Positions 28,629-28,904 of a stretch of 33,187 nucleotides of DNA are shown in pieces. Source of the stretch: a virus (Duplodnaviria > Heunggongvirae > Uroviricota > Caudoviricetes); IMG/VR virus record IMGVR_UViG_2529293223_000010. One strand, written 5' to 3'. The notes under the pieces were generated by a model. It was not told the DNA's origin and did not search any database. It worked only from the letters and a program-made list of their open reading frames with translations. Position 1 is the stretch's first letter, and each line of letters begins with the position of its first letter. The position numbers and the translations under genes are program-made.

Positions 28629-28789
28629 AACGATAACTCCGTACATTTGGAAATTATCGCCACCGACGACGCCAATCGAACTGGTGGCGAACTGTGCAGG
28701 GTTGGCGTAACCGGGTACGGAAACCGGCGAGCCTTTCGGCTCCCCCACACAGCCCGCCATAAATCGCGAATGTGACTGTGCAAACGATA

Positions 28790-28811
28790 TGAAAAAAGAC
28801 GCGGACGCGTC
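28790..28811 (-). terminator. rho-independent terminator ending the short leader transcript, copy 2
   Basis: Minus strand GACGCG-TC-CGCGTC followed by T6; different sequence but same position and structure as copy 1. Confidence 0.5.
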
Positions 28812-28874
28812 TCATATCGCTCCGTAAACATCCGGGACGCCAATCCCGACGCCAGATTTTGCTGGCGCGTGAGG

Positions 28875-28904
28875 AATATAGCCCCGGATTAACGTTGTCG
28901 TCAA
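28875..28904 (-). promoter_or_regulatory. sigma70-like promoter TTGACG-N18-TATATT, copy 2
   Basis: -35 at 28899..28904, -10 at 28875..28880; embedded in a 60-bp block identical to copy 1. Confidence 0.5.

Follow-up and report, generated by a model that had tools for sequence, protein, structure and literature searches.

Two probable IsrK-C4-antirepressor cassettes in one lambdoid prophage share one RNA recognition site and carry separate second sites

The stretch of DNA analyzed here, hereafter the window, comprises 33,187 nucleotides (nt) of a Caudoviricetes virus (IMG/VR record IMGVR_UViG_2529293223_000010). Positions 28,629 to 28,904 hold a promoter and leader upstream of an antirepressor-like gene, and a second version of this arrangement lies 4.5 kb away on the same (minus) strand. 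The feature very probably constitutes the regulatory head of an IsrK-C4-Ant cassette, one of two paralogues that are both located in a single decayed lambdoid prophage ridden with insertion sequences (IS). Each cassette is composed of a promoter, a short leader with a terminator, a C4 RNA and an antirepressor-like gene (ant1 in copy 1, ant2 in copy 2). The initial annotation, made from the letters alone, had recognized a self-contained promoter/terminator/antirepressor module that occurs twice, as is indeed the case, and the span it delimited runs exactly from the -35 hexamer of copy 2 to the base before the ATG of ant2. It missed the C4 RNA between the terminator and ant, which is the actual regulator in our reading.

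An Rfam scan of the whole window at curated thresholds detected c4-a1b1, isrK and C4 elements in each copy, with order and strand preserved between the two. The c4-a1b1 element (RF03163, gathering threshold 46.7 bits) was matched at 24321-24373 in copy 1 (52.9 bits) and at 28829-28881 in copy 2 (52.2 bits), and the isrK leader (RF01394, gathering threshold 50) at 24286-24360 (77.8 bits) and 28792-28868 (75.1 bits), respectively. The C4 antisense RNA (RF01695, gathering threshold 45) was matched over the full length of the model at 24175-24259 (68.7 bits) and 28680-28764 (77.6 bits); all six matches are on the minus strand. The part of the copy 2 C4 that is equivalent to the mature RNA of phage P1 spans ~28683-28758 (76 nt, minus strand). 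In both copies, ~51-54 nt separate the C4 match from the ATG of ant.

Consensus scans detected one strong sigma-70-like promoter per copy, consisting of TTGACT or TTGACG, an 18-nt spacer and TATATT, all on the minus strand. In copy 2, the -35 TTGACG (28899..28904) and the -10 TATATT (28875..28880) show 10/12 matches to the consensus, and the isrK match begins 7 nt downstream at 28868. In copy 1, the -35 TTGACT (24391..24396) includes the stop codon of an upstream Q-like gene, and the -10 TATATT (24367-24372) falls inside a block of 60 base pairs (bp) that is identical in the two copies. TTGAC is invariant in 53 homologous leaders. Two adjacent hairpins follow just past the promoter in both copies, as is typical for c4-a1b1 elements (in copy 2, leader hairpin 1 at 28849-28868 and the a1 hairpin at 28833-28848, minus strand). 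Both leaders then run into an intrinsic terminator, which would give the short form of the RNA that characterizes isrK: AACCGCGCTGGCGGTTTTTTT at 24286-24306 in copy 1 (terminator scan match 24291-24306) and GAGACGCGTCCGCGTCTTTTTT at 28792-28813 in copy 2 (28796-28813), both on the minus strand. As had been noted initially, the two terminators differ in sequence, occupy the same position and both end in a T-run. Downstream, ant1 (23566..24123, minus strand, 185 amino acids) and ant2 (28080..28628, minus strand, 182 amino acids) encode ORF6N proteins (PF10543, 71.5 and 73.1 bits, respectively; cut-off 27.8) that match phrog_2379 (anti-repressor) end to end with E-values of 2e-91 and 3e-81. By homology, they are annotated as putative antirepressors. 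No repressor gene was identified within the window.

The recognition sites were mapped by transfer from the annotated P1 record (NC_005856), in which a1 and b1 lie in the leader, a 77-nt C4 follows, a2 is located just after C4 and b2 sits on the ribosome-binding site of icd. In the P1 sequence, a' (CTGTCAA) is found in the single-stranded junction that precedes the closing stem's 3' strand and b' (CACTAAC) in the second internal hairpin loop. P1, P7 and D6 differ precisely there, each site changing in concert in its three copies; P1 and D6 share a and differ in b.

Both copies in the window show the same three-way complementarity on the minus strand. The a1 site TTGGCGT is placed in the loop of leader hairpin 2, within the identical block (24329-24335 and 28837-28843 in copies 1 and 2), and recurs as a2 a few nt after C4 (24165-24171 and 28669-28675); both are complementary to a' ACGCCAA in the C4 junction (24197-24203 and 28702-28708). 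The b-sites pair in the same way with a sequence that differs by copy. In copy 1, b1 TCGAAAC (24314-24320) and b2 TCGAAAC (24135-24141) are complementary to b' GTTTCGA in C4 loop 2 (24210-24216); in copy 2, b1 TACGGA (28821-28826) and b2 GTACGGA (28638-28644) are complementary to b' TCCGTAC (28715-28721). The b1 of each copy thus co-varies with its own C4 loop and with the ribosome-binding site of its own ant. In both copies b2 is located at the ribosome-binding site of the first downstream open reading frame (ORF), which is ant itself and not icd: in copy 1 it lies 2 nt upstream of the Shine-Dalgarno sequence GAGG (24129-24132), and in copy 2 it overlaps the Shine-Dalgarno sequence GGAG (28637-28640). 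The co-resident cassettes therefore have a common a-site and separate b-sites.

Two other ways of assigning the sites were discarded. Placing a' in C4 loop 2, opposite the hairpin-1 loop CAAAAUC, gave no consistent complement, and the P1 annotation puts a' in the junction and b' in loop 2. Whole-molecule RNAduplex predictions of C4 against the leader or the downstream region produced long artificial duplexes that ignore intramolecular structure, and site-level complementarity and covariation were used instead. At b2, the predicted duplex energies, which include flanking stem bases and are indicative only, were -11.5 and -13.6 kcal/mol for the own partner vs. -7.2 and -7.7 kcal/mol for the cross partner. 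Short-segment duplex energies at b1 did not discriminate own from cross pairing. The two copies probably cross-talk only in part, with the a-site and hairpin 1 in common and the b2 duplexes favoring the own copy.

A mechanism can be proposed on this basis. The leader would be initiated at the sigma-70 promoter TTGACN-18-TATATT, and most transcripts would end at the terminator to yield an IsrK-like RNA of ~75 nt containing a1 and b1, while read-through transcripts would extend into the 76-nt tRNA-like C4 RNA and then into the antirepressor mRNA. C4 would expose a' at its three-way junction and b' in loop 2, both single-stranded. Pairing of a' with a2 just 3' of C4, and of b' with b2 on or beside the Shine-Dalgarno sequence of ant, would block translation of Ant. 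The leader sites a1 and b1, being copies of the target sites, would compete for C4 either in cis or as part of the free short RNA, and repression would be relieved. The read-through leaders are predicted to be strongly structured (z of -4.6 and -5.5), and the minimum-energy fold of copy 1 pairs a1/b1 with a'/b' in cis. At the edges of C4, a conserved AUUAU/GG context is found on the 5' side (the slash marks the edge) and an ACC(A) tail follows the closing stem; these features are suggestive of excision of C4 by RNase P. An additional outer stem encloses the leader terminator (24282-24310 and 28785-28819, minus strand; alignment columns ~75-118) and requires sequence 3' of the U-tract, so that only read-through transcripts could form it. 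Its arms are GCAUAA and UUAUGC in copy 1 and CGAUAUG and CAUAUCG in copy 2, the commonest type in the family having CGACA and UGUCG; the stem co-varies between terminator types and may be a processing or stability element.

The block common to both copies is an exact repeat of 60 bp, ATCCGGGGCTATATTCCTCACGCGCCAGCAAAATCTGGCGTCGGGATTGGCGTCCCGGAT, at 24322-24381 and 28830-28889 on the minus strand; this 60-mer matches the window twice vs. 0.00 times expected from 100 shuffles. An identical block had been reported initially at 28831..28890 and 24321..24380, ranges that are each displaced by 1 nt, in opposite directions, and so do not delimit identical strings. From ~-21 to +39 relative to the inferred leader start, the block takes in the spacer CCGGGGC and the -10 as well as hairpin 1 and the a1 hairpin. 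Its 3' edge lies between the common a1 and the copy-specific b1, 1 nt before b1 in copy 1; since the copies differ in b specificity, the identity does not extend into b1. The block ends form a perfect 7-bp inverted repeat, ATCCGGG...CCCGGAT, with arms 46 bp apart (24375-24381/24322-24328 and 28883-28889/28830-28836), which could be an operator.

Aligning the two modules, as the initial annotation had proposed, revealed a mosaic. Across ~1.2 kb, the copies are unrelated upstream of the -35, identical over 60 bp, nearly unrelated over the following ~45 nt that hold both terminators, and similar again in the C4 stretch, where two further exact runs occur within the C4 RNA (25 nt, 24252-24276 = 28757-28781; 26 nt, 24184-24209 = 28689-28714), before ant is reached. 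The ant coding regions are 73.7% identical across their first 354 nt, below the roughly 80% first stated. Nor do the C-termini differ completely, as was also claimed: the Ant proteins are 58% identical and their central parts differ by insertions and deletions, and their last 31 residues are alignable with 39% identity (E 1e-7).

The same organization is found across a wide family. A scan of viral contigs based on an alignment of Ant yielded 80 loci. C4 is present in 55/57 distinct regions upstream of Ant homologues, and all 55 have the same predicted fold (RNAfold), with a long closing stem around two hairpins. Complements of 6-9 nt to the junction and to the loop recur at the same two positions in nearly every cassette despite wide sequence variation: a1 and b1 are located ~73-79 nt and ~57-64 nt before C4, and a2 and b2 ~41-52 nt and ~15-23 nt before the ATG. 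Among 53 distinct leaders, 12 a-types and 16 b-types occur in 27 combinations. With windows set by position only, the longest complement between own sites averaged 7.2 nt at the a-sites and 5.7-6.9 nt at the b-sites, vs. 3.5-4.5 nt between cassettes of different types. Covariation was counted in 27 rows, one cassette per a/b combination, on a structure that we specified ourselves. The a1:a' and a':a2 helices each have 6/7 pairs changed on both sides, with 98.9% of the cells paired. The C4 closing stem (7/16 pairs changed on both sides), C4 hairpin 1 (5/5) and leader hairpin 1 (3/7) are all 100% paired. The whole structure is 99.5% paired vs. 86.4% after shuffling (0/500) and 35-44% with the partner shifted by 1-3 columns.

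The identity of the 60-bp block in the 53 leaders ranges from 41 to 60 of the 60 positions (median ~53, most at least 52/60), so that it is 85-100% conserved in most cassettes of unrelated phages, and most of the ant coding in the family is 65-80% identical. A 60/60 block is present in four other distinct leaders on other contigs. Almost no variation is seen in the spacer CCGGGGC, the -10, the loop of hairpin 1 and the a1 hairpin stem; the a1 core and a few bases near the transcription start vary. The exact allele TATATTCCTCACGCGCCAGCAAAATCTGGCGTCGGGATT occurs in cassettes of several a- and b-types, with a variety of flanks and Ant types. The initial annotation had suggested searching for the block in other prophages, and at megablast sensitivity it was found in 636 of 5,426 complete E. 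coli genomes, with as many as four places in one genome; the 163 phage records that contain it are mostly from Shiga toxin (Stx) phages. Among the matches listed, no annotated feature lies under the block in any E. coli row, nor in most phage rows. A search for phage records with two leaders gave 264 matching records, each with a match in one place only.

Among the 80 loci, two same-strand cassettes were found only in the lineage of the window itself (L086 and L091), and L086 carries both without the intervening IS. In other loci with multiple cassettes, the co-resident cassettes differ in both a and b. Cassettes of the copy 1 type occur singly in L087, L088 and L090, and one of the copy 2 type occurs singly in E. 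coli RMDEC465; the two copies thus have separate histories. In three loci (L038, L040 and L050), a leader, terminator and C4 of the copy 2 type are found together with the 3' flank of Q and an Ant1-like coding region (92-94% identical to ant1), which places recombination breakpoints between the RNA part and ant. In the nin-region cassette of RMDEC465 (L001, 7466-7549), an element scoring as sRNA-Xcc1 (75.4 bits) is inserted between C4 and ant, showing that the distance from C4 to ant is not fixed. Some of these prophages also carry a distant subfamily on the opposite strand (L091, 2370-2456; L128, 301-386; L152, 105-190), with promoter …GGTGGAATTATAGT, hairpin-1 loop CAUAAAAC, its own co-varying a/b sites and a different downstream gene (MATT…).

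The identity of the block is what would be expected of two cassettes of the same a-type that carry the commonest allele: since the block is the most conserved segment of the family and both copies have the same a specificity, strong constraint and frequent shuffling of modules suffice to explain 60/60. The initial annotation had offered either selection on a regulatory RNA element or gene conversion limited to the promoter; the conservation across the family upholds the former, and the latter is not needed, as the block is widely conserved. We nevertheless weighed the view that the promoter/a1 segment was homogenized by recent conversion or recombination events, with either the other copy or a third phage as partner, so that the identity would reflect history and not constraint. 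Module shuffling is common in the family, as illustrated by L038, L040 and L050 and by the one promoter/hairpin-1 allele that is joined to several a- and b-types, and leaders of the same a-type range from 45 to 60 matches to the block, which puts 60/60 at the top of their range. However, four other leaders also reach 60/60 and most have at least 52/60, with most of their ant genes at 65-80%; the 3' edge falls 1 nt before b1 (24314-24320), as a functional boundary would predict; and conversion accounts for the arrival of an allele but not for its wide retention. Recent conversion between the copies in the window is thus possible but not required, and as the source of the identity we consider it rather unlikely. 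Even less can be said for the block as the best-kept part of a longer, recent duplication of a module of ~800 bp, which would make its conservation uninformative, as the initial annotation had cautioned. The modules are collinear over ~700 bp and align throughout, but their flanks diverge at once: identity drops from 60/60 to near-random within the next 45 nt (the b1/terminator segment), rises in the C4 scaffold and amounts to 73.7% in ant, where synonymous divergence is not close to zero. Such a duplication is extremely improbable.

A different function for the block was considered as well, namely that of a Q-dependent late promoter with its Q-utilization site and tR', producing a short transcript of the 6S-RNA/StxS type and duplicated once without Q. 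The position of copy 1 invites this interpretation. The Q-like antiterminator gene (DUF1133/Phage_antitermQ; 24393..25067, minus strand; PF06576 E 7e-108, PF06530 26.1 bits; phrog_753, anti-termination protein Q-like) ends inside the -35 of copy 1, which starts in its stop codon and would give a short terminated transcript, and tRNAs, holin, lysozyme and terminase genes lie downstream on the same strand. Copy 1 is thus directly downstream of Q, as isrK is in the Gifsy-1 prophage, but copy 2 and many homologues are not adjacent to Q. The promoter of isrK in the Gifsy-1 prophage drives expression without Q induction. Moreover, a promoter of cassette 1 acting as the late promoter pR' was discarded in view of two relatives without this cassette, E. 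coli RMDEC465 and O121 201805972, in which a different promoter-terminator unit directly follows the DUF1133 Q. This unit, TTGCAA-17-TTCAAT followed by AGCCCGCTTTATGCGGGTTTTTTT, is located in the window at 23447..23558 (minus strand), between ant1 and the tRNA cluster; judging from its position, it is probably the real late promoter with tR'. RMDEC465 has the nin-region cassette only, and no ORF6N gene is annotated in the region in O121 201805972. Cassette 1 therefore seems to have been inserted between Q and the late promoter, an arrangement also described for Gifsy-1, and a late-promoter role for the block is very unlikely. As the initial annotation had stated, copy 2 has no Q gene directly upstream and a small plus-strand ORF (28956-29243, 95 amino acids) diverges from it; it is no orphan, however, as it occupies the nin region of the same prophage, 3.7 kb upstream of the same Q.

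Several observations weigh against the reading as paired IsrK-C4-Ant cassettes. Between C4 and ant there is no icd-like ORF and too little room for one, so that the P1 mechanism, in which a block of icd translation acts with Rho polarity, cannot apply as such. The translational AUGA coupling described for orf45 and the antirepressor gene of Gifsy-1 is not conserved either: the ORF of 35 codons in copy 1 ends 24 nt short of ant1, and in copy 2 reading from the corresponding AUG continues in frame into ant2 with no AUGA overlap. In some family members b1 is imperfect, and its role is less certain than that of b2. No partner was found anywhere in the cassette for the hairpin-1 loop CAAAAUC, nor was one found for the conserved spacer CCGGGGC, and part of the conservation of the block is thus left unexplained. 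Finally, the prophage is decayed, with four IS600-like copies and truncated portal and integrase genes, and the cassettes may be silent relics. The loop CAAAAUC itself (24347-24353 and 28855-28861) is retained across lambdoid cassettes and recurs in P1 as CAAAUUC, on a stem that co-varies, and may be a contact for Hfq or another protein.

The closest described counterpart is the isrK locus of the Gifsy-1 prophage of Salmonella Typhimurium, arranged as antQ - isrK - orf45/STnc1160 - anrP - isrJ (Hershko-Shalev 2016, PMC4825925). There, a fraction of the transcripts reads through the IsrK terminator into a long RNA that is translationally silent, and short IsrK provided in trans activates the translation of anrP through base pairing with sequence farther downstream, as supported by compensatory mutations at IsrK G28/C162 and G31/C159 (PMC4825925). 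These positions are equivalent to a1 and a'. Copy 1 shows this same order of genes, with a Q-like antiterminator, an IsrK-type leader and terminator, a structured RNA and an antirepressor, and its predicted read-through fold pairs the leader with the downstream region, like the published 'structure A' (PMC4825925). In contrast to Gifsy-1, no overlap exists here between the stop codon of the upstream ORF and the start of ant, a second cassette is present in the nin region with no Q directly upstream, and the downstream region that is an ORF in the published model scores here as a C4 RNA with two co-varying recognition sites. These RNA motifs were described by Weinberg (2010), and an 'IsrK-C4 immunity system' in lambdoid prophages, P4, P1, P7 and N15 by Barquist (2013).

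With the immI regions of P1 and P7 (c4 - icd - ant1/2), the cassettes share the order a1, b1, C4, a2 and b2 on a ribosome-binding site, the leader hairpin loop CAAAUUC/CAAAAUC, a terminator-like hairpin before C4 and a specificity set by co-varying a and b. They differ in lacking icd, with b2 on the ribosome-binding site of ant, in their Ant, an ORF6N protein of ~185 amino acids and not P1 Ant1/2, in having no C1 operator annotated or evident at the cassette promoter, and in residing in a lambdoid and not a plasmid prophage. In work of 1990, Citron and Schuster reportedly found that P1 C4 is cut from the transcript of its own operon and blocks translation at a2/b2, in keeping with how the P1 record is annotated. 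As described in the literature, N15 (CA RNA, antA/B/C) and P4 (CI RNA, seqA/seqC) likewise have a processed leader small RNA that pairs on both sides of itself, whereas the outcome in P4 is transcription termination and its cargo consists of replication genes, not an antirepressor. The short terminated transcript just after Q in copy 1, upstream of the late genes, resembles lambda 6S RNA and StxS, which are short pR'-tR' transcripts made by lambdoid and Stx phages, but it belongs to another sequence family, a separate pR'/tR'-like unit follows ant1, and copy 2 is not beside Q.

On the minus strand, the prophage reads from early genes and the divergent 95-amino-acid ORF to cassette 2, hok/sok, a NinB-like/DUF1367 gene interrupted by an IS600-like element, YbcO, the Q-like gene, cassette 1, the second promoter-terminator unit, four tRNAs, holin, lysozyme and Rz, with the small and large terminase genes farther on. 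A match to the sok antitoxin RNA (27805-27977, minus strand, 96.3 bits) is found with a hok-type ORF just downstream of ant2, as in E. coli relatives. An IS3-family element with ORFs of 100 and 272 amino acids (IS600 in relatives) is present at 5191-6347, 14886-16042, 25464-26620 and 30811-31967; the copy at 25464-26620 is located between the cassettes and truncates the DUF1367/NinB-like gene. An IS4-type transposase is encoded at 13519-14847. The four-tRNA cluster (23048-23358, minus strand) between ant1 and the lysis genes has the ARAGORN anticodons CAT (Met), TCT (Arg), TGT (Thr) and TCC (Gly), and the CAT tRNA is annotated as Ile in relatives. A TrkH-family potassium transporter gene (19808-20827, minus strand, E 4e-107) is situated between the lysis and terminase genes. 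Toward the ends of the window, a match to the CssrB small RNA (1365-1547, 151.6 bits) adjoins a gene (1676-3391) for a 571-amino-acid LRR_TTSS and NEL E3-ligase protein of the IpaH type, a combination that points to a Shigella or enteroinvasive E. coli host and, together with IS600, suggests Shigella, and a truncated integrase fragment (31983-32453) adjoins the overlapping SraC/RyeA and SdsR/RyeB small RNA genes (32581-32725), probably marking the attachment end of the prophage.

The feature is real, well explained and ordinary in kind: an unannotated pair of cassettes that belongs to an already described switch, and its value lies mainly in explanation and not in discovery. Two aspects may be undescribed, as modest extensions: a systematic two-site combinatorial code in lambdoid cassettes, and co-resident cassettes that share a but not b. 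Tentatively, and with low probability in our own estimate, a and b could form a two-key code that phages reshuffle into RNA-immunity groups, the common a and leader hairpin 1 and the private b in this prophage partly coupling both switches. If so, either short leader, or either C4, could titrate the other by way of the a-site, and complete repression exerted at the ribosome-binding site would stay copy-specific. Two antirepressors that differ in their C-terminal parts would then belong to a single induction circuit, hierarchical or cross-buffered.

Read as an a1b1 leader and its C4 RNA, the cassettes account for a frozen 60-bp stretch amid drifting surroundings. The module is widespread in Stx phages and would control antirepressors, and thereby a route of prophage induction that bypasses RecA cleavage of the repressor. 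Identification of the 'IsrK' leader as the a1b1 leader, and of 'orf45/STnc1160' as the C4 RNA, of a P1-type switch would provide a testable base-pairing model for the control of antirepressors in Stx phages.

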